Shown one piece after another: positions 5,379 to 13,714 of a stretch of 64,000 bases of DNA. The translations under genes and the position numbers were made by a program. The stretch is from a virus, in the IMG/VR virus record IMGVR_UViG_3300037628_000218, positions 1-64,000 of that record; one strand, written 5' to 3'. The notes under the pieces were generated by a model that was given only the letters and a program-made list of their open reading frames with translations, made no database searches and was not told the DNA's origin. Numbering within the stretch: position 1 is the stretch's first letter; each line of letters begins with the position of its first letter.

Positions 5379-5731
5379 CACTTATTTTTAATATTCTCTA
5401 CACTATCACGCCACTTTCGTCCTGTCACTGTCAAATTATCGCTATGATACACGTTTCCAATCGTTAACCTAGCCACTAGCAACAACTGCCTTGCTATGCC
5501 CCTCCTACGCTTACCAGGCTGTGTATACACGCTTTTAATAGTCTTGTTAGCCTCTACTATTAAGCAGCTATCAAAAGGGGTGCTAGTGCCTCCCTGTGAG
5601 TTCCTATGACAAAACCTATAGCTGTTATTAGATGCTTTCAATATTACCACGTCTAAGCCAAATTTGTGAGGTGTTAAAGTTTCTAGCAGCTTGTAGCAGT
5701 TAAGCGGTTTTAAGGTGTTAATATCAAACAT
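5375..5731 (-). CDS. GNAT-like acetyltransferase
   Basis: IKSVYTQPGKRRRGIARQLL matches the acetyl-CoA-binding motif A (RxxGxA). Confidence 0.6.
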   Translation of the reverse strand: MFDINTLKPLNCYKLLETLTPHKFGLDVVILKASNNSYRFCHRNSQGGTSTPFDSCLIVEANKTIKSVYTQPGKRRRGIARQLLLVARLTIGNVYHSDNLTVTGRKWRDSVENIKNKC

Positions 5732-5740
5732 AGTAAACCC

Positions 5741-6031
5741 TTATATTAAACCATCTAAATTGCCACGTACAGCATAAACTAAACCCTTGCCAGCTATTCG
5801 GGTAATTTTATCCCTGCTAGCACTCCTAAAACCTTTATTGTCTTTGCTAGTGTTAGCTAGTGCTATTGTGAATAGATCACTGTACCCGTTGTGGCTACCA
5901 GGGCTTGCGACTAACTGCCCGTTTAATTTACGAGCTGAACCGTCTTTTTTAATGAAGTTAACAGTTACCACCTGCCCGTGTAAGTCTTCTAGTATGCTGT
6001 CAACCTCTTTTCTATTTAGAAAGTTAGTCAT
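5741..6031 (-). CDS. Small SH3/WYL-like beta-barrel protein
   Basis: VTVNFIKKDGSARKL motif. Confidence 0.5.
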   Translation of the reverse strand: MTNFLNRKEVDSILEDLHGQVVTVNFIKKDGSARKLNGQLVASPGSHNGYSDLFTIALANTSKDNKGFRSASRDKITRIAGKGLVYAVRGNLDGLI

Positions 6032-6032
6032 C

Positions 6033-6173
6033 TTATAATTCCTCCTTAATTATCCAGAGTTGGCGGCGGTTCTTCTTTAACCTGCGCATAGATACCTTGC
6101 GTTCACGAGCGGTTTGCCGTTCTGTTTTAGGTTGCTGGCGTTTGCGTAACTTTTGAGTTTGAATATTAAACAT
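6033..6173 (-). CDS. 46-aa Arg/Lys-rich peptide (not in the ORF track)
   Basis: Translated by hand: MFNIQTQKLRKRQQPKTERQTARERKVSMRRLKKNRRQLWIIKEEL; fills the gap between two genes. Confidence 0.7.
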   Translation of the reverse strand: MFNIQTQKLRKRQQPKTERQTARERKVSMRRLKKNRRQLWIIKEEL

Positions 6174-6177
6174 ACAA

Positions 6178-6492
6178 TTAACCCTTTTTGTGGTTGTTAG
6201 TAAATGCTATTTGATAGCCTATACGATTAATTAATAACTGTACTGTTGTTACAGCTAGTGTATTGTTAACCATTAATTTAGTTGCCATCGCCGCTATCAA
6301 AGGCTTGGCATTTTTGCCCTGGCAGTCGAGGATTTGAAAAGTCACGCACCCATTACAGATAAACTTTCTGACAGCTAAAAAGGCGTGTCCATTTCTATTA
6401 TGAACGTGAGCTATGCCGTTCTTTTGAGCTTCTCGCATAGCTTTAATAATGTTTTTCAGTACCGCTGTGCCGAATGATGTTTTAGTGATCAT
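6178..6492 (-). CDS. Hypothetical early protein
   Basis: First gene after the cassette at 6499-6551. Confidence 0.7.
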   Translation of the reverse strand: MITKTSFGTAVLKNIIKAMREAQKNGIAHVHNRNGHAFLAVRKFICNGCVTFQILDCQGKNAKPLIAAMATKLMVNNTLAVTTVQLLINRIGYQIAFTNNHKKG

Positions 6493-6498
6493 TTTGTT

Positions 6499-6551
6499 TA
6501 CTCGCTTTGTTTAAGTTGTAGCTACCTTAACAGCATTATTTCTACTGTCAA
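6499..6551 (-). promoter_or_regulatory. Early promoter and leader cassette
   Basis: TTGACA..TAAGGT AGCTACAACTTAAACAAAGCGAGTA. Confidence 0.85.
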
Positions 6552-6633
6552 CAAGTATCTACATTTTATTTTAGAGGCTTCTATATACTCTTTATATACA
6601 TATACCAACTTTAAACTATTTAAAAATAAAGGA

Positions 6634-6661
6634 TTGACAGCAACTTCTAGCATGTTAAGAT
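6634..6661 (+). promoter_or_regulatory. Divergent plus-strand sigma70 promoter
   Basis: TTGACA-16-(TGT)TAAGAT with an A-rich upstream element, followed by the leader-like ACAACT. Confidence 0.75.
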
Positions 6662-6664
6662 TCA

Positions 6665-6745
6665 ACAACTACTAACAAGAGGGCGACAACTTCGCCTTGT
6701 TGAAGGTAGTCGCACATGGAAAGTGCGACTTGTTGCCCTAAAGGG
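6665..6745 (+). ncRNA. Candidate structured small RNA (three-way junction)
   Basis: AGGGCGACA/TGTTGCCCT outer stem enclosing CTTC..GAAG and AGTCGCAC/GTGCGACT hairpins, just downstream of a promoter; no ORF. Confidence 0.55.
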
Positions 6746-6778
6746 AGGAGGTAAGTGTGGGCGGTGGTTTTGTAAGCA

Positions 6779-6836
6779 TGCAAATAGAATGCCAAGAACT
6801 TTTATTATTATAATTTAAGTTGGCATGATCTGTGCT
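6779..6836. promoter_or_regulatory. Two divergent sigma54-like -24/-12 boxes
   Basis: Minus TTGGCATTCTATTTGCA (6795-6779) and plus TTGGCATGATCTGTGCT (6820-6836), both GG-N10-GC. Confidence 0.55.
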
Positions 6837-6848
6837 TGTAATATTCTT

Positions 6849-6867
6849 AATGAGAATGATTCTTATT
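6849..6867. promoter_or_regulatory. Fur-box-like palindrome
   Basis: AATGAGAATGATTCTTATT versus consensus AATGAnAATnATTnTCATT. Confidence 0.6.
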
Positions 6868-6905
6868 TGCATTACTATGCGTGTGTGAAAGTGCGTTTAC
6901 GTGTT

Positions 6906-7004
6906 TGAAAATGTGCTACCTCAAATATGAAAAAGCTCGTAAGTCGTTTATGAAAAAGCTCGTGAGTCGTGAAAATGTGCTAACTCAAATATGAAAAAGC
7001 TCGT
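6906..7004. repeat. Iteron-like direct repeats
   Basis: 35-bp unit at 6906-6940 and 6970-7004 (1 mismatch); TATGAAAAAGCTCGT occurs three times. Confidence 0.9.
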
Positions 7005-7292
7005 GAGTTTTGCTCTACGCCTTGTTAGTGCAGCTCGTAACATGAGAAACGGGACATACGTTACAGGTATTGACACAATTAAAACTAGAGAGAATAATTG
7101 TTGAGCCAATACTTTCAGGTCAACAGAATCCAATATGGCGCGATTAAACTCACCCACTTGTATTCTAATTTCTGCTATAAAACTTCTGCTTACTGTAGCA
7201 AGAACACTGCTACCATTTTTATCAAACCGATCATTTTTACAAGCGCGCTCAAACTCTTTCTTTTTAAATTCTTCATATGTCATTTTATTCAT
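6948..7292 (-). CDS. Hypothetical membrane protein whose 3' end runs into the repeats
   Basis: AGGTG RBS and a hydrophobic segment. Confidence 0.55.
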   Translation of the reverse strand: MNKMTYEEFKKKEFERACKNDRFDKNGSSVLATVSRSFIAEIRIQVGEFNRAILDSVDLKVLAQQLFSLVLIVSIPVTYVPFLMLRAALTRRRAKLTSFFIFELAHFHDSRAFS

Positions 7293-7300
7293 GTAATCAC

Positions 7301-7468
7301 CTATTTAATTAAAGATATATCAGCCTTTCTGCTTAGCTTTTTATCTTGATACTTCCAGCCGCTTAACCACTGTGTGCGCTGTGGGCTTTCGTGCCAATAA
7401 CTGCAATTTTCAGAACTACAGTTATTGCTTCTAGCCTGCCTGCCTTCACTGAATATATTGTTTTTCAT
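7301..7468 (-). CDS. Ribosome modulation factor (Rmf/CrpP-fold)-like protein, 55 aa (not in the ORF track)
   Basis: FSEGRQARSNNCSSENCSYWHESPQRTQWLSGW aligns with RMF GYQAGIAGRSKEMCPYQ..QRSQWLGGW; GGGGAG RBS. Confidence 0.7.
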   Translation of the reverse strand: MKNNIFSEGRQARSNNCSSENCSYWHESPQRTQWLSGWKYQDKKLSRKADISLIK

Positions 7469-7573
7469 GCTAACTCCCCATTGATTTGTTAATGCTGCTA
7501 ATTGCCTGCTTCCTACGCTTGATAGTTAGCTGATCTCCAAGCTAGTTCGTTCAGAAGCAGGAGCTTAGTAACT

Positions 7574-8086
7574 CTAGTCTTCCAGTGTCCATTGTAAACC
7601 TTTCTGGACTATACCATGATCTCGTATAGAACGTAGGACTGCAAGAGCAATGCCAATATCGTTGCGACCTGATAAACGGGAAGTCTCAATATCGTGGACA
7701 ATCTTGAAAAACGCTTCTTGCTCAATAGTGATGCTAATATCCTCCCAACCAGTACCAGCACGTTTAAGGTAACCTTGGCCTCCATCTACGGAACATGCAC
7801 CACACTTACAGGTAACATAATCATGACGGTGAGCTGAGTAGATAGAGTCCCCGCAAGCCTTACATATGATCTGGTTAGATGCTATGTACATGTCTCGCTC
7901 TTGTTCTTTAATTCTCCAAAGCCCTTGTTTAACATTAAACAAAACTGACGAGAGGTTGTAGTCAATACTAGATTCCTCCCAGCTAACTAAGTATTCTTCT
8001 CTATCTTTATCTAGTACTGCTGTGTACACAGTAGGGTCTTCCCACTCTAAACTGTGCGTAAACTCGAACTTATCTGGTAACTTCAT
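7574..8086 (-). CDS. Hypothetical Zn-binding protein
   Basis: CKAC..SAHRHDYVTCKCG..VDGG motif. Confidence 0.7.
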   Translation of the reverse strand: MKLPDKFEFTHSLEWEDPTVYTAVLDKDREEYLVSWEESSIDYNLSSVLFNVKQGLWRIKEQERDMYIASNQIICKACGDSIYSAHRHDYVTCKCGACSVDGGQGYLKRAGTGWEDISITIEQEAFFKIVHDIETSRLSGRNDIGIALAVLRSIRDHGIVQKGLQWTLED

Positions 8087-8087
8087 A

Positions 8088-8333
8088 CTAATTCTCCTGT
8101 TTAGGTTGCTTTACCACATTCTTGCGGTAGAAAGTATCTTTGCCCCCGTTAGAGGCTGTACACTCAACTGTGAAGCCCAAGGGTGTCACTCTTATGATCT
8201 CACATTTAGCCAAACGGTGTGTACGAGGGAATATGCAAGCTACAGTATCTCCTACTTCTACAGGTGCTCCAAAAAAGTCTAACCCATGAGTTTGCATTGT
8301 GATACCTCCTTGCCCCATACTATTAACCCCCAA
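8088..8333 (-). CDS. Hypothetical protein
   Basis: ORF track. Confidence 0.55.
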   Translation of the reverse strand: MGVNSMGQGGITMQTHGLDFFGAPVEVGDTVACIFPRTHRLAKCEIIRVTPLGFTVECTASNGGKDTFYRKNVVKQPKQEN

Positions 8334-9058
8334 TTTCTAGTTAAAAGAAATCGAGCTTTGTCTTCTACTTCTTTAAATTTACCCAACTCGATAGCTTCTA
8401 CCTTACTTCTAACCGCACCAGCCCTAATAAAGTTTCTACGCTTAACAAAAGTACCTTCTTTAAAGAAACGTGGATACTCATTCCAGTTTATACCTTTTTC
8501 TAGGAGCATGTCAAGGCGGTCTGCTCTACCTTTACCTTGTAGCTCCTTGTGAGAGGAAACTGAGCTAGCTGCCATAGACACACTGTTCTTAGTAGCATCA
8601 TTAACTCTCCATAAAAAAGTGTTAGCCAGCTCTTCATCATTAGGGAGCTGGAAGACTCGACAATCAAAAGTTGGTAGTGCCTTAGTACATTTTTCAGGCC
8701 ATTCCTTTAGCGCGATTGCTACAAACTTAGCTGTTGCCATTGCTGCTAAAGTAGATACCATCTTTTGTATCTTACCTCCAAAGAAGATCTCAGATTTGTA
8801 ATCCTCTTGCTTCCAGCATAAACTAATTTCATCGCTTTGGCAGTAACCTGTAAGTGCTCCGCTATTCTCTACAAGATACTTGGTAACCTCAGTCATAGCA
8901 TCAGACATAGCAGCATCGTAAGGTCTCTCCATACCTTTTGTAAATCTGCTGAAACCTCTACCATCAAGACGAGCGTATACAGGTAAGTAAGGTAGAAACT
9001 TCCTACCCGTTTCCCGTTGTTCATAGCCCTTCATGCGATCTCCCATTTCATCTACCAT
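8279..9058 (-). CDS. thg1: Thg1-like (tRNA-His guanylyltransferase / 3'-5' polymerase) protein
   Basis: RLDGRGFSRFT, YCQSDEISL, FDCRVF and WR..DATKNS motifs. Confidence 0.92.
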   Translation of the reverse strand: MVDEMGDRMKGYEQRETGRKFLPYLPVYARLDGRGFSRFTKGMERPYDAAMSDAMTEVTKYLVENSGALTGYCQSDEISLCWKQEDYKSEIFFGGKIQKMVSTLAAMATAKFVAIALKEWPEKCTKALPTFDCRVFQLPNDEELANTFLWRVNDATKNSVSMAASSVSSHKELQGKGRADRLDMLLEKGINWNEYPRFFKEGTFVKRRNFIRAGAVRSKVEAIELGKFKEVEDKARFLLTRNWGLIVWGKEVSQCKLMG

Positions 9059-9248
9059 TCTCTCCTCCTCTCTTTTAGGACAATTTTATGCGCTTAACAC
9101 TACACAACTACCTTTTTGCTGAATATTGAATTTAAAACATGGCTAGATTCAGCTGCCAATTTTTCGTTTTCTATCAGCTCTAGCAGCACAGGGCGGTAAT
9201 GGTCTCCCTCTTTTCCCCTGGCAGCAACGCCAGCCCATGTACTCAGGG

Positions 9249-9479
9249 TTATGTGCCGTAAAATTCCTTTCTTGCGTTCTTTATCATGTCTACCTGTTCT
9301 TCTTCACCTGCGTTATCGAACAACACAAGAGTGTAATTCCATTCTGTTTTCTCTTGAGCCTCGTTAAACTTAGTATCAATACTTATCCTGGCTTCAAGCT
9401 CTAATATATATTTATCCTGTCTATCAACCTGAGCTTGCAGCTCTTGAATATGTTTCATTGCGTCCCCTCCTAATTGCAT
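9249..9479 (-). CDS. Hypothetical protein
   Basis: ORF; probable start at MKHIQ. Confidence 0.55.
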   Translation of the reverse strand: MQLGGDAMKHIQELQAQVDRQDKYILELEARISIDTKFNEAQEKTEWNYTLVLFDNAGEEEQVDMIKNARKEFYGT

Positions 9480-9554
9480 TAATCTGTTCTATGCGTATCC
9501 TATCGCCAATCTTAACACCTGTCAAGCCCTTTTCAACACACTCCTCCACCCCTG

Positions 9555-9758
9555 TTAGGGGGCTATCCCTGTATCCCATACATATGTGTATAGGCCATCT
9601 TCACCCATGCACGCATCAGCAACAACTTTGTCGTACTTTTCTTCTGCTAGTATCCGCACAATTTGGTCTATTACCCAGTCTTTATGATGTGATCCGTCAA
9701 TTCCACCGTACTCTACAGCAAACTCAATAGCTTTGTCAATTTTATCTTTATCGGTCAT
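9555..9758 (-). CDS. Small protein with a GGIDGSHHKDWVIDQ motif
   Basis: Compact ORF with GAGG RBS and a motif-like core. Confidence 0.75.
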   Translation of the reverse strand: MTDKDKIDKAIEFAVEYGGIDGSHHKDWVIDQIVRILAEEKYDKVVADACMGEDGLYTYVWDTGIAP

Positions 9759-9827
9759 GATATTACCCTCTTTATTTTCAGTTATCCCAGTGTTTCGTAA
9801 AAAATGTAATACTAGCTTATGCAGACA

Positions 9828-10031
9828 TCACAGATAAACCTCTGCCAAGACCTTACAGTCATTTATAGTTGATCGTGTATACATTGGTGCAGTTGAAGTC
9901 TCTCCCAGGTAAAGGTGGTAGCTTAAACCTCCAGGAGACTTCCTAATTATCCAAGTAACACTACCAGACCCTACACTTTTAGTTCCGATGGCTACTACGC
10001 CATTCTTTCGTGTGTTCTTCCAGCTTATCAT
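9828..10031 (-). CDS. Hypothetical protein
   Basis: ORF coupled to the upstream gene. Confidence 0.55.
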   Translation of the reverse strand: MISWKNTRKNGVVAIGTKSVGSGSVTWIIRKSPGGLSYHLYLGETSTAPMYTRSTINDCKVLAEVYL

Positions 10032-10261
10032 CAGTACCCCCGTTTTCCTATCACACTAAAGTTTGGGTTACCCTTACCATCCATCATCACATCACCTATA
10101 ATACTGTTTGTTCCATCTACTGTGACATAGAAGTTGTTACGCCTCAAAACTGCAATACAGTGGTTAATATCTTCTAAGTTAGGTTGGTATCCTTCTTCTT
10201 TAACTTTATCCATGTACTCTTGGACTAACTGCTTCGCTTCTTCAACTGTTATTATAGACAT
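10031..10261 (-). CDS. Hypothetical protein
   Basis: AAGGAG RBS and an upstream promoter. Confidence 0.65.
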   Translation of the reverse strand: MSIITVEEAKQLVQEYMDKVKEEGYQPNLEDINHCIAVLRRNNFYVTVDGTNSIIGDVMMDGKGNPNFSVIGKRGY

Positions 10262-11704: not shown

Positions 11705-13714
11705 TTAAAAGTTAACTTTAATAGTACGTTCAAACTTACCCGTAACCTTAAAATATACTGAGTTACGCTGTGTTGATGAGAAACCTAGTCCGCTTAACTG
11801 GTTATCAGACTCCTCTGTTTTCATCTTAGCCCCTAGCACTTCAAAGACCTTACGATGCTCATTAAGCTTTGGGCCTAAGAACTCATTATAGAAACCTCGT
11901 GAAGATCCCTCCTGCTTACAGCCTTCTATGATAAAGAACCAGTGCTTATTACCAGTGCTGTTACCATCCCAGTGGTTAGGGGAGTTCATAATCATATTCA
12001 CTTTCTGGAAATTCTGGGTGGATACTCCCCATACTTCCTTAACAGTTTCACTATTAGGTAATGAGTCTTTCAAAGTAAACCCACCTTTCCTAGTGAAGTT
12101 AACAGTAGCGATGTCCACATACTCCCCGCTACGCATAAGCTTGACGTACTCATATGTATATATATGCCCATCAAATTCGATCTCCGCTGTGAAGCCCTTC
12201 CCTCCCCTGTGGCTGTAGTTGTTAACCATAAAACGGTAGTCTCCTTCTGGCATACAATCGGTATCTGCATATATAATATTCTCTACAGCTACTCCATCAC
12301 CAGGCGTCATAATGTCAACATCTAACATTCCCGACGAGGCGTGAAGTCTACCTTTATTACCGAAGTAGATACGATGATCGTTAGGCTCGTTGCAATGTGC
12401 ATCCAGATCGTTCGGATTATCCCCTTTGTCGTTCCATTGGATAGAGAAGCGTAACACCCCTTCTACCTTACCCCCAGCAGCTTTAACTCTATCTTTCATG
12501 GAGTCAGTTACTTCCCCATTATATGACCAAGAGAAGTTGTTATGCCATTTTAAGATATTCTTTGCATTCTCATTAACAGGAGCAATCAGGCTCATAAAGT
12601 TGTTACCATGCTTGTTCTCAACAAGAACTTCAATTCCTGTAGCGTTAGGTACAACATTATCAATAAAGGATTGTACACTTACTTCTTCAACCTTGTCCAG
12701 GTTCTTAGTTGGTGTACCAACCTCCTCCACTAGCTCATCAAAGACGTTCATAGTCTTTTTCGTAGCTCTATCAGCGAAGATAACATTGTTAATAGTTAGA
12801 TCTTCAGTAACTGCATAACGGCGGGATAGAGAATCCTCAATCCCTAACTCCTCAACTTTATCTTGCGCCTTTCTAATCATCCCTTTAGTGACAAGAGCTG
12901 TTGGGCGTTTGTAATTAGTAGGAGCAACCTTTTGTTCAAAGCTAGCAACAGCTGCATCTAGCTCACGTCCTTCTGATAAGTCTAATAGTAGACTACCAAT
13001 AACAGTGTTACGTATCTTAGCAGCACCTCCAAGCTTAGCGGACTCTGACCAGCAGAACAAGTCTTTGCCCTGACTAAGACCGTTATATGCTTTGAGCTGC
13101 TTAACAAACAAGGTTACAATACTTTTGTGCTCTTCTCCACGGTAGAGAGAGTTCTGGGCGATTAAGTCCAAAACAGTCTCAGCTGAGTCTAGTGTGAGAT
13201 CATCTAAGCTACGTTTAAAGACCTCTTTGTTACTACGTATCGTAGATAGGGTAGTAGCTATTGAGTCCTTACGTGCAATGAAAGGACTCCCAAGCTCAGC
13301 AGCTAAGTGTTCCCATGTTTGCACAAAAGAACCCGATAGCTGTTGGTGACTAAACTCAGTACCAACCTTTTTCTCATAGTGTAGGAATGAGTCCCTTACC
13401 TTTCCACCCTTAACTAGCTCAGACATAGCATCTGCAACAACTTGAAAGTGACCACCAACTTTGATGTCCCAAACGGAAACCATCTTGTTATCTTTAATGG
13501 TTACTAGCCTGCCGACAATTCTAATAAACTGTTTGCAGCAGTTACAGTCGTGTTCACGGCGTACTTTATAGATCTCGTTTGTACCTTCTGGGAAGCTATC
13601 TAAGTAGGTGTTCCATAGAACATCCTTAGGTATATCCACAACGTAAAGTCCAGAGTCTTGCATTACTTGTAGTTGGTTCTGTAACGCTACTCTTAGCGGT
13701 GTAATTAATGTCAT
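11705..13714 (-). CDS. Large hypothetical protein with an HDCxCC motif and a YfaP/DUF2135-like domain
   Basis: HDCNCCKQF; DLDAH..LDVD..VENI. Confidence 0.8.
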   Translation of the reverse strand: MTLITPLRVALQNQLQVMQDSGLYVVDIPKDVLWNTYLDSFPEGTNEIYKVRREHDCNCCKQFIRIVGRLVTIKDNKMVSVWDIKVGGHFQVVADAMSELVKGGKVRDSFLHYEKKVGTEFSHQQLSGSFVQTWEHLAAELGSPFIARKDSIATTLSTIRSNKEVFKRSLDDLTLDSAETVLDLIAQNSLYRGEEHKSIVTLFVKQLKAYNGLSQGKDLFCWSESAKLGGAAKIRNTVIGSLLLDLSEGRELDAAVASFEQKVAPTNYKRPTALVTKGMIRKAQDKVEELGIEDSLSRRYAVTEDLTINNVIFADRATKKTMNVFDELVEEVGTPTKNLDKVEEVSVQSFIDNVVPNATGIEVLVENKHGNNFMSLIAPVNENAKNILKWHNNFSWSYNGEVTDSMKDRVKAAGGKVEGVLRFSIQWNDKGDNPNDLDAHCNEPNDHRIYFGNKGRLHASSGMLDVDIMTPGDGVAVENIIYADTDCMPEGDYRFMVNNYSHRGGKGFTAEIEFDGHIYTYEYVKLMRSGEYVDIATVNFTRKGGFTLKDSLPNSETVKEVWGVSTQNFQKVNMIMNSPNHWDGNSTGNKHWFFIIEGCKQEGSSRGFYNEFLGPKLNEHRKVFEVLGAKMKTEESDNQLSGLGFSSTQRNSVYFKVTGKFERTIKVNF

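Follow-up and report, generated by a model that had tools for sequence, protein, structure and literature searches.

A putative slot for Fur-type and sigma-54-type sites in the gene-free early control DNA of a large phage

Why would a phage that appears to be lytic carry, in a gap between genes, a tight group of motifs that look like the binding sites of host regulators? The question arises at positions 6779-6867 of the window, which is the whole stretch of DNA analysed here, namely bases 1-64000 (64,000 nucleotides) of the 93,797-bp IMG/VR record IMGVR_UViG_3300037628_000218. A sequence-only reading had described in these 89 bp two divergent TTGGCA-N7-TGC elements with exact GG-N10-GC spacing, separated by a 24-bp AT-rich spacer and followed 12 bp later by a 19-bp Fur-like palindrome, and had proposed that they recruit or titrate host proteins. 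The elements are present as described: the boxes occupy 6779-6795 on the minus strand and 6820-6836 on the plus strand, the spacer between them (6796-6819) is A/T at 21 of its 24 positions, and the palindrome (6849-6867) begins 12 bp after the right 17-mer. Our main reading is that an early control region free of genes is built here as a module and that these 89 bp form its variable middle part, in which a pair of sigma-54-type boxes fills a slot and a probable Fur operator follows; we give this reading a probability of roughly 0.5.

The genome encodes a sheath, a tape measure, baseplate proteins, a family-A polymerase, a primase-helicase, a ribonucleotide reductase, a nicotinamide phosphoribosyltransferase and a Thg1-like enzyme; the sheath shares 34% identity with its FelixO1-like counterparts. 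The genome belongs to an uncultured 94-kb lytic phage with a contractile tail that is distantly FelixO1-like. The two ends of the record overlap exactly over 109 bp, its 'terminal repeat', which is probably an assembly artefact. Genes run leftward from 1 to 75 kb and again at 91.5-93.8 kb. An early array of small genes, numerous of which encode proteins without known function, extends leftward from 6551 across the record start to ~91.5 kb, and is marked by a family of extended -10 promoters, TTGACA-N13-TGnTA, with 11 minus-strand copies in the genome. The 455-bp gap at 6493-6947 forms the upstream edge of this array and holds the cluster at 6779-6867. Further along the window, the gene for the Thg1-like tRNA-His guanylyltransferase (8279-9058, minus strand) has its nearest viral relatives in ~355-kb jumbo-phage contigs, at 54-56% identity.

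One informative relative was found, G003 (94,888 bp), and our statements on conservation rest on it. Its 669-aa marker protein is 78% identical to that of the present phage, other homologues being 73% and 62% identical. This protein, encoded at 11705-13714 on the minus strand, matches PF26675 / phrog_1735 (YfaP-like), a family whose function is not known; it is very widespread, with matches at E <= 1e-100 to thousands of metagenome proteins and in 558 phage records, inconsistently labelled by depositors as protease, RNA polymerase or hypothetical. Searches with the flanking proteins otherwise returned just distant phages, such as G001, whose polymerase shows 36% identity. Among 50,697 phage records, none matched 6400-7100 at the DNA level, and exact-pattern scans of viral contigs for the direct repeats and the conserved hairpin recovered G003 only, the 51 hairpin-pattern matches in metagenome contigs being all chance occurrences in GC-rich genes.

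The gap and its surroundings, hereafter region A, contain the following features.

6524..6551, minus strand: early-type sigma-70 promoter with an extended -10 (TTGACA-N13-TGtTAAGGT), before ORF 6178-6492, with which the leftward early array opens
6634..6661, plus strand: divergent early-type promoter P+ (TTGACA-N16-TAAGAT, with TG before the -10), predicted to fire rightward, against the gene array
6668..6768, plus strand: leader of P+, with two hairpins and a G-rich tract
6779..6795, minus strand: left sigma-54-type -24/-12 box, TTGGCATTCTATTTGCA, 16.5 bits, rank 1 in the genome
6796..6819, no strand: spacer between the boxes, 24 bp, 87% A/T
6820..6836, plus strand: right sigma-54-type box, TTGGCATGATCTGTGCT, 15.3 bits, rank 3 in the genome
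6849..6867, no strand: Fur-type 9-1-9 palindrome, AATGAGAAT-G-ATTCTTATT, with 8 of 9 arm pairs complementary
6905..7049, plus strand: GTTTGAAAATGTGCTA element, then three to four direct repeats of ~20 bp (ATATGAAAAAGCTCGTGAGT), iteron-like

Region A looks like an early control module that is free of genes and offers a slot for host-protein sites. A 53-bp element at the leftward promoter recurs in ~10 copies across the genome, and P+ is kept in G003, where two copies stand. In the leader of P+, the first hairpin pairs GGCGA (6682-6686) with TCGCC (6692-6696) and is followed by TTGTTGA, the second has an 8-bp stem (6708-6730), and the G-rich tract spans 6743-6768 (GGAGGAGG...GTGGGCGGTG); hairpin 1 and the tract are conserved in G003, from which hairpin 2 is absent. 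The leader (6668..6768) contains no real ORF. A coding role was considered for a GTG that follows a perfect GGAGG (6747-6751) and was rejected, the frame having 18 codons here and just 4-5 in G003. The leader region folds well on either strand (z-scores: plus, -2.7; minus, -3.4), and an Rfam search of 5500-8000 returned zero matches. To the right, the repeats at 6905..7049, which have similar counterparts in G003, extend over the 3' end of ORF 6948-7292, which is itself doubtful. The claim that the cluster has no adjacent target gene holds by and large. The right box points into the 3' end of a convergent ORF; the left box points at a structured stretch of 95 nt and beyond it reaches an early gene, which has its own sigma-70-type promoter.

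The palindrome carries the stronger half of the argument. Its start lies 13 bp beyond the right box's TGC. It differs from AATGAKAATNATTMTCATT at one position and matches TGATAATNATTATCA at 11 of 14. A literature search for its exact core led to two papers on bacterial Fur. It agrees at 17 of 19 positions with the Fur consensus of Xanthomonas campestris, AATGAgAATcATTctCATT (PMC1790865); its core equals the Fur boxes of E. faecalis, TGAGAATGATTCTCA (PMC6056675). The commonest half-site here is GAGAAT or GCGAAT rather than the canonical GATAAT, and in G003 canonical and variant half-sites are mixed within single sites. Given the match to the Xanthomonas and E. faecalis boxes, this G-for-T variant is a documented form of the Fur box.

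Sites of this kind occur beyond expectation. The 9-1-9 pattern, from which this palindrome departs by one mismatch, finds three in this genome and eight in G003, against 0 and 1 for the reversed pattern used as control, and at 15 or more matches of 18 to the 9-1-9 Fur consensus there are one and seven, against 0.05 and 0.1 in shuffled sequence; 6849..6867 is the sole site of this genome at the latter threshold. Its core, GAATNATTC, exists in three genome copies only (6854, 91146 and 92771), with similar flanks and in large gene-free, repeat-rich regions. All 11 Fur-type sites of the two phages lie in gene-free, promoter-rich DNA, and for six of them the centre falls at +6 to +52 from a predicted TTGACA-N13-TGnTA promoter start. 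This position of most boxes, the usual place of a repressor, favours ordinary operators over recruiting or titrating devices. The copy at 6849..6867 lies at +190 from P+ and at +3 to +21 only from the hypothetical promoter start of the right box. No Fur homologue is encoded by this phage or by G003, and no iron-related gene is found near the palindrome. Taken together, these matches make it quite probable that the palindrome is a functional cis element, and they suggest, with somewhat less assurance, that host Fur reads it.

To score the two boxes we made a matrix by hand tally; its source is the set of 42 intergenic-sense motifs that ChIP-seq gave for E. coli sigma-54 (PMC4591121, Table 1). 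Validated E. coli sites average 14.6 bits under this matrix (sd 4.5), which both flagged boxes exceed. Each shows the exact GG-N10-GC spacing, faces outward and has flanks that fit the TGGCAC-N5-TTGCW consensus. The per-position tail probability is 3.3e-6 for a score of at least 15.25 bits and 1.3e-6 for the left box, and by our own arithmetic ~4e-4 pairs of hits of at least 15.25 bits within 100 bp would be expected per genome. Across the 93,797-bp genome, with both strands counted, TGGCA-N7-TGC itself has only three occurrences; they lie at 6794, 6821 and 7655, the last belonging to a third box:

7640..7656, minus strand: third sigma-54-type box, TTGGCATTGCTCTTGCA, 16.45 bits, rank 2 in the genome

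This third box lies within ORF 7574-8086 in sense orientation, 82 nt before the stop and ~160 nt upstream of a small gene (7301-7468). In total, hits of at least 14 bits number three in the genome against 1.5 (sd 1.2) in shuffles, which is no enrichment. Since the count is within the shuffle range, the signal lies in clustering and location. Scoring against shuffled sequence bore out the sequence-only reading for the Fur-type site (1 vs 0.05) and failed to do so for the number of sigma-54 hits. As a whole, matrix scores, clustering and matches to the Fur consensus agree with its view that these are non-random cis elements of a host-protein type in a gene-free control region.

The boxes cannot be counted twice. 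Both belong to a single imperfect inverted repeat, whose arms they form with 74% complementarity, and so are not independent events; any other cause of the repeat would account for both. We considered two such causes and rejected them: as a terminator the repeat has a stem of just 7 bp, a loop of 24 nt and no T-run, and as a miniature mobile element the 60-bp repeat is bordered by TTGTAA, yet there is no second full copy. The right box could alternatively be read as a weak sigma-70 promoter (TTGGCA-N16-TATTCT), which at 9 of 12 matches is no better than chance.

If the boxes were promoters, the left one would start near 6768, leftward into the two-hairpin region, and the right one near 6847, 2 nt before the Fur-type box. 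The rank 4 hit (13.9 bits, 92799 on the minus strand) lies in a paralogous non-coding region, again with a Fur-type box over its predicted start, so that a Fur-type box covers the predicted start of a sigma-54-type box in two cases (6820 plus, 92799 minus). The phage genome encodes no PF00158 enhancer-binding protein, and no upstream activator site was recognised near the sigma-54-type boxes. Without a phage-encoded activator, any firing from them would depend on a host activator. That host sigma-54 polymerase truly occupies the boxes is a tentative proposition, to which these scores and positions bring us a little short of even odds. A scan for the left-box pattern with its AAAGTTC flank returned G003, chance matches and one intergenic site that is possibly real: AAAGTTCTGGCATAGAACTTGC, identical at L154 1379-1400 and L156 2123-2144, two unrelated low-GC viral contigs, and a good sigma-54-type box embedded in its own palindrome.

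The comparison with G003 shows what is kept and what is exchanged. The early gene on the left flank is orthologous in both phages (54% identity); the right flank is not. Promoter, hairpin 1 and G-tract align, and region A has the same order of parts in both: a rightward early promoter, a leader with hairpin and G-tract that ends in GTGGGCGGTG, one or more Fur-type boxes, and three to five direct repeats of ~20 bp. Of the eight Fur-type palindromes of G003, this homologous stretch between genes has five; the other three lie in a cluster of promoters without genes. The slot, ~90 bp from the G-tract to the last Fur-type box, is filled by the sigma-54 pair here and by three further Fur-type boxes in G003, where the homologous region has no sigma-54 hit of at least 6 bits. 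Conservation, which the sequence-only reading had proposed as a check, thus extends to the family of Fur-type motifs and not to the sigma-54 pair. G003 has its highest-scoring sigma-54 hit (18.9 bits, where a genome is expected to give 0.03) elsewhere, in non-coding DNA within the cluster of Fur-type boxes and promoters. This hit shares AAAGTTC-TGGCAT-N5-TTGC with the left box and differs from it in four of the five spacer bases; shared ends around a divergent spacer are what a bipartite recognition site would predict. In the more distant G001 and G002, sigma-54-type hits are intragenic and at chance level. We regard the pair as a plausible, lineage-specific occupant of the slot, for which the case is weaker than for Fur.

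Two other gene-free regions of the genome, both outside the window, bear on the nature of the slot.

G000:C1:92570-93330 (L003 820-1580), no strand: gene-free, ~760 bp, with tandem repeats, DnaA boxes and a Fur-type palindrome
G000:C1:90460-91420, no strand: gene-free, ~1 kb, rich in short repeats, where rightward and leftward gene blocks converge

The first contains a module paralogous to region A (genome 93068-93320, locus L003), with the same type of promoter and the same closing elements, GTTTGAAAnTGTGCTA and the AAAGCTCRTAAGT repeats; this closing pair, at 93253-93320, is the same as that at 6905-7010 of the window. The middle of the module holds four consensus DnaA boxes, TTATNCACA (TTATCCACA twice, TTATACACA and TTATTCACA, at 93119-93178), preceded by eleven tandem repeats of 11 bp (TCTTGACAGTC / TCTTGATAGTG). 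The Fur-type palindrome of the region (92766-92784) is overlapped by the 13.9-bit sigma-54-type box. The ~760 bp are a candidate replication origin, or else a candidate analogue of the T5 repeat region. In the second region, three tandem rightward TTGACA-N13-TGnTA promoter-like elements (91021, 91061, 91101) have no gene behind them, and a Fur-type palindrome (91141-91159) follows the last; its counterpart in G003 has eight promoter-like elements at 43.7-44.3 kb. With a sigma-54 pair here, Fur boxes in G003 and DnaA boxes in the paralogue, the module resembles a frame in which the host-protein sites can be swapped. The suggestion that such DNA offers places for host DNA-binding proteins is in keeping with the four DnaA boxes, and the present analysis adds that two close relatives fill one slot differently and that the paralogous module uses DnaA boxes.

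From the motifs, their statistics, recurrence and conservation, and their position relative to promoters, all of which are observed, we infer which proteins bind and what the transcripts might do. Two early sigma-70 promoters would stand back to back, one serving the leftward early genes and the other, P+, reading rightward into non-coding DNA. A dimer of iron-loaded host Fur would most likely bind the palindrome, making it an operator or a roadblock for rightward non-coding transcription, whose source would be either the right box, with a predicted start 2 nt before the palindrome, or P+, which lies 190 nt upstream. Under iron shortage Fur would be released and rightward transcription freed. 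The sigma-54-type boxes might be held by host sigma-54 polymerase as closed complexes that fire only with a host activator. In this scheme, which the sequence data suggest, the phage probably ties some of its early non-coding transcription to host iron.

Several other explanations compete with the main reading. The one that survives best regards the likeness to sigma-54 as incidental, the inverted repeat with its AT-rich spacer being an iteron-type origin, where the spacer would be the unwinding element, or else the site of a phage protein. The ~20-bp direct repeats stand only 70 bp off, in the paralogue these repeats come together with 11-bp tandem repeats and four DnaA boxes, as in plasmid and phage origins, and an early promoter fires into the region, as it does at the transcription-activated origins of T7, T4 and lambda. 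It would also account for a pair that is not conserved in G003 and for a number of sigma-54 hits that is not enriched. However, for an unwinding element the AT stretch, at 24 bp, is short, region A is without a DnaA box, and this explanation leaves two things unexplained, namely that the arms match -24/-12 at every critical position and that the best sigma-54 hit of G003, with shared flanks, lies in a region of Fur boxes. We consider it possible, on the unlikely side.

The palindromes, for their part, might be read by a dimeric DNA-binding protein of the phage rather than by host Fur. The non-canonical GAGAAT/GCGAAT as commonest half-site would agree with this, as would the location of the sites in phage-specific repeat regions and the many small early proteins of no known function. 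It is made rather unlikely by the occurrence of the same variant half-sites in documented Fur boxes of Xanthomonas and Enterococcus, by the mixture of canonical and variant half-sites within single sites of G003, and by the presence of identical 19-mers in T5 and similar sites in rV5, neither of which is closely related to this phage.

A third proposal is that replicating phage DNA acts as a sponge that soaks up Fur, sigma-54 polymerase, DnaA and sigma-70 polymerase and so reprograms the host; iron uptake might, for instance, be turned on to serve an iron-dependent ribonucleotide reductase of the phage. Multicopy Fur boxes do titrate Fur, which is the basis of the FURTA assay, the phage does encode a ribonucleotide reductase, and G003 has arrays of four to five Fur-type boxes and eight tandem consensus promoters without a gene behind. 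The present genome, however, offers just three Fur-type and three or four sigma-54-type boxes, and most boxes lie at operator distance from a promoter, which a sponge would not need; we think this explanation quite unlikely. Very improbable, finally, is a DNA-entry checkpoint like the T5 injection stop, with host proteins holding the first-entering DNA until early proteins act: the region adjoins the early array and the T5 injection-stop region has the same Fur-type palindromes along with DnaA boxes (preprint 10.1101/866236), but the 109-bp overlap, which looks like an assembly artefact, does not show where the genome ends lie, and two-step injection is known only for T5-like siphoviruses, whereas this phage is contractile-tailed. 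The operator reading is better supported than the sponge, entry-checkpoint and origin readings.

If Fur does bind, phage start-up or antisense control would hinge on the iron of the host, with consequences for phage ecology where waters are poor in iron and for the therapeutic use of phages in tissue where iron is restricted. In temperate phages, control of carried genes by host iron regulators is known, as for Shiga toxin 1 and diphtheria toxin. In the literature searched, neither Fur boxes nor sigma-54 sites have been described as conserved early control DNA of lytic phages, and no system combining such sites was found there, in line with the sequence-only reading, which knew of none.

Among known systems, bacterial promoters provide the first comparison. 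Many of the sigma-54 sites mapped by ChIP in E. coli are intragenic or have no target gene (PMC4591121), and the phage boxes resemble them in GG-N10-GC spacing, in scores at or above the mean and in having no obvious target gene. They differ from enhancer-dependent sigma-54 promoters in that no activator gene or site was found and the pair is not conserved in G003. The bacterial Fur boxes of Xanthomonas and E. faecalis share with the phage palindrome its length, its 9-1-9 / 7-1-7 symmetry and a near-identical sequence, and they too are frequently multiple and frequently lie over or just past a promoter start; the phage site, in contrast, is in gene-free DNA without a downstream iron gene, and the transcripts it would control are apparently non-coding. 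Set beside an iteron-type origin, region A shows direct repeats and an AT stretch of only 24 bp; DnaA boxes are in the paralogous region only, and no replication initiator was identified in the phage.

Further parallels come from two other phages. In T5 (NC_005859), the annotated injection-stop region (9140-10149) contains five Fur-type palindromes, at 9552, 9587, 9656, 9691 and 9697, the first four forming two pairs 35 bp apart, repeated 104 bp on; one palindrome matches at 18 of 18 positions and one is identical to a site of G003. No sigma-54-type hit of at least 11 bits is found in that region. Its palindromes and DnaA boxes have been described without mention of Fur (preprint 10.1101/866236). 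The left terminal repeat of T5 resembles our regions in being gene-free, repeat-rich early DNA with Fur-type palindromes and DnaA boxes (here in the paralogue), and differs in belonging to another phage family and in having no sequence homology. In rV5 (NC_011041), a gene-free hub at ~116.8-117.1 kb, on whose function we found no publication, consists of a sigma-70 promoter, a G-rich leader of ~60-100 nt and a Fur-type box, twice over and then followed by repeats; the order of parts is the same as here, with no sequence similarity beyond the motifs and no sigma-54-type box seen. Because neither T5 nor rV5 is a close relative of this phage, a shared host protein is the simplest reader of the palindromes. 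It is a more speculative and rather improbable extension that these unrelated large lytic phages share a device made of promoter, G-rich leader and host-protein slot (Fur, sigma-54 or DnaA), with which they would read or deplete the iron, nitrogen/stress or replication status of the host in the first minutes of infection. As T5 and rV5 both carry the motif, the former in its injection-stop region and the latter in its hub, a dependence on host iron could be tested in cultured coliphages with existing fur and rpoN mutants.
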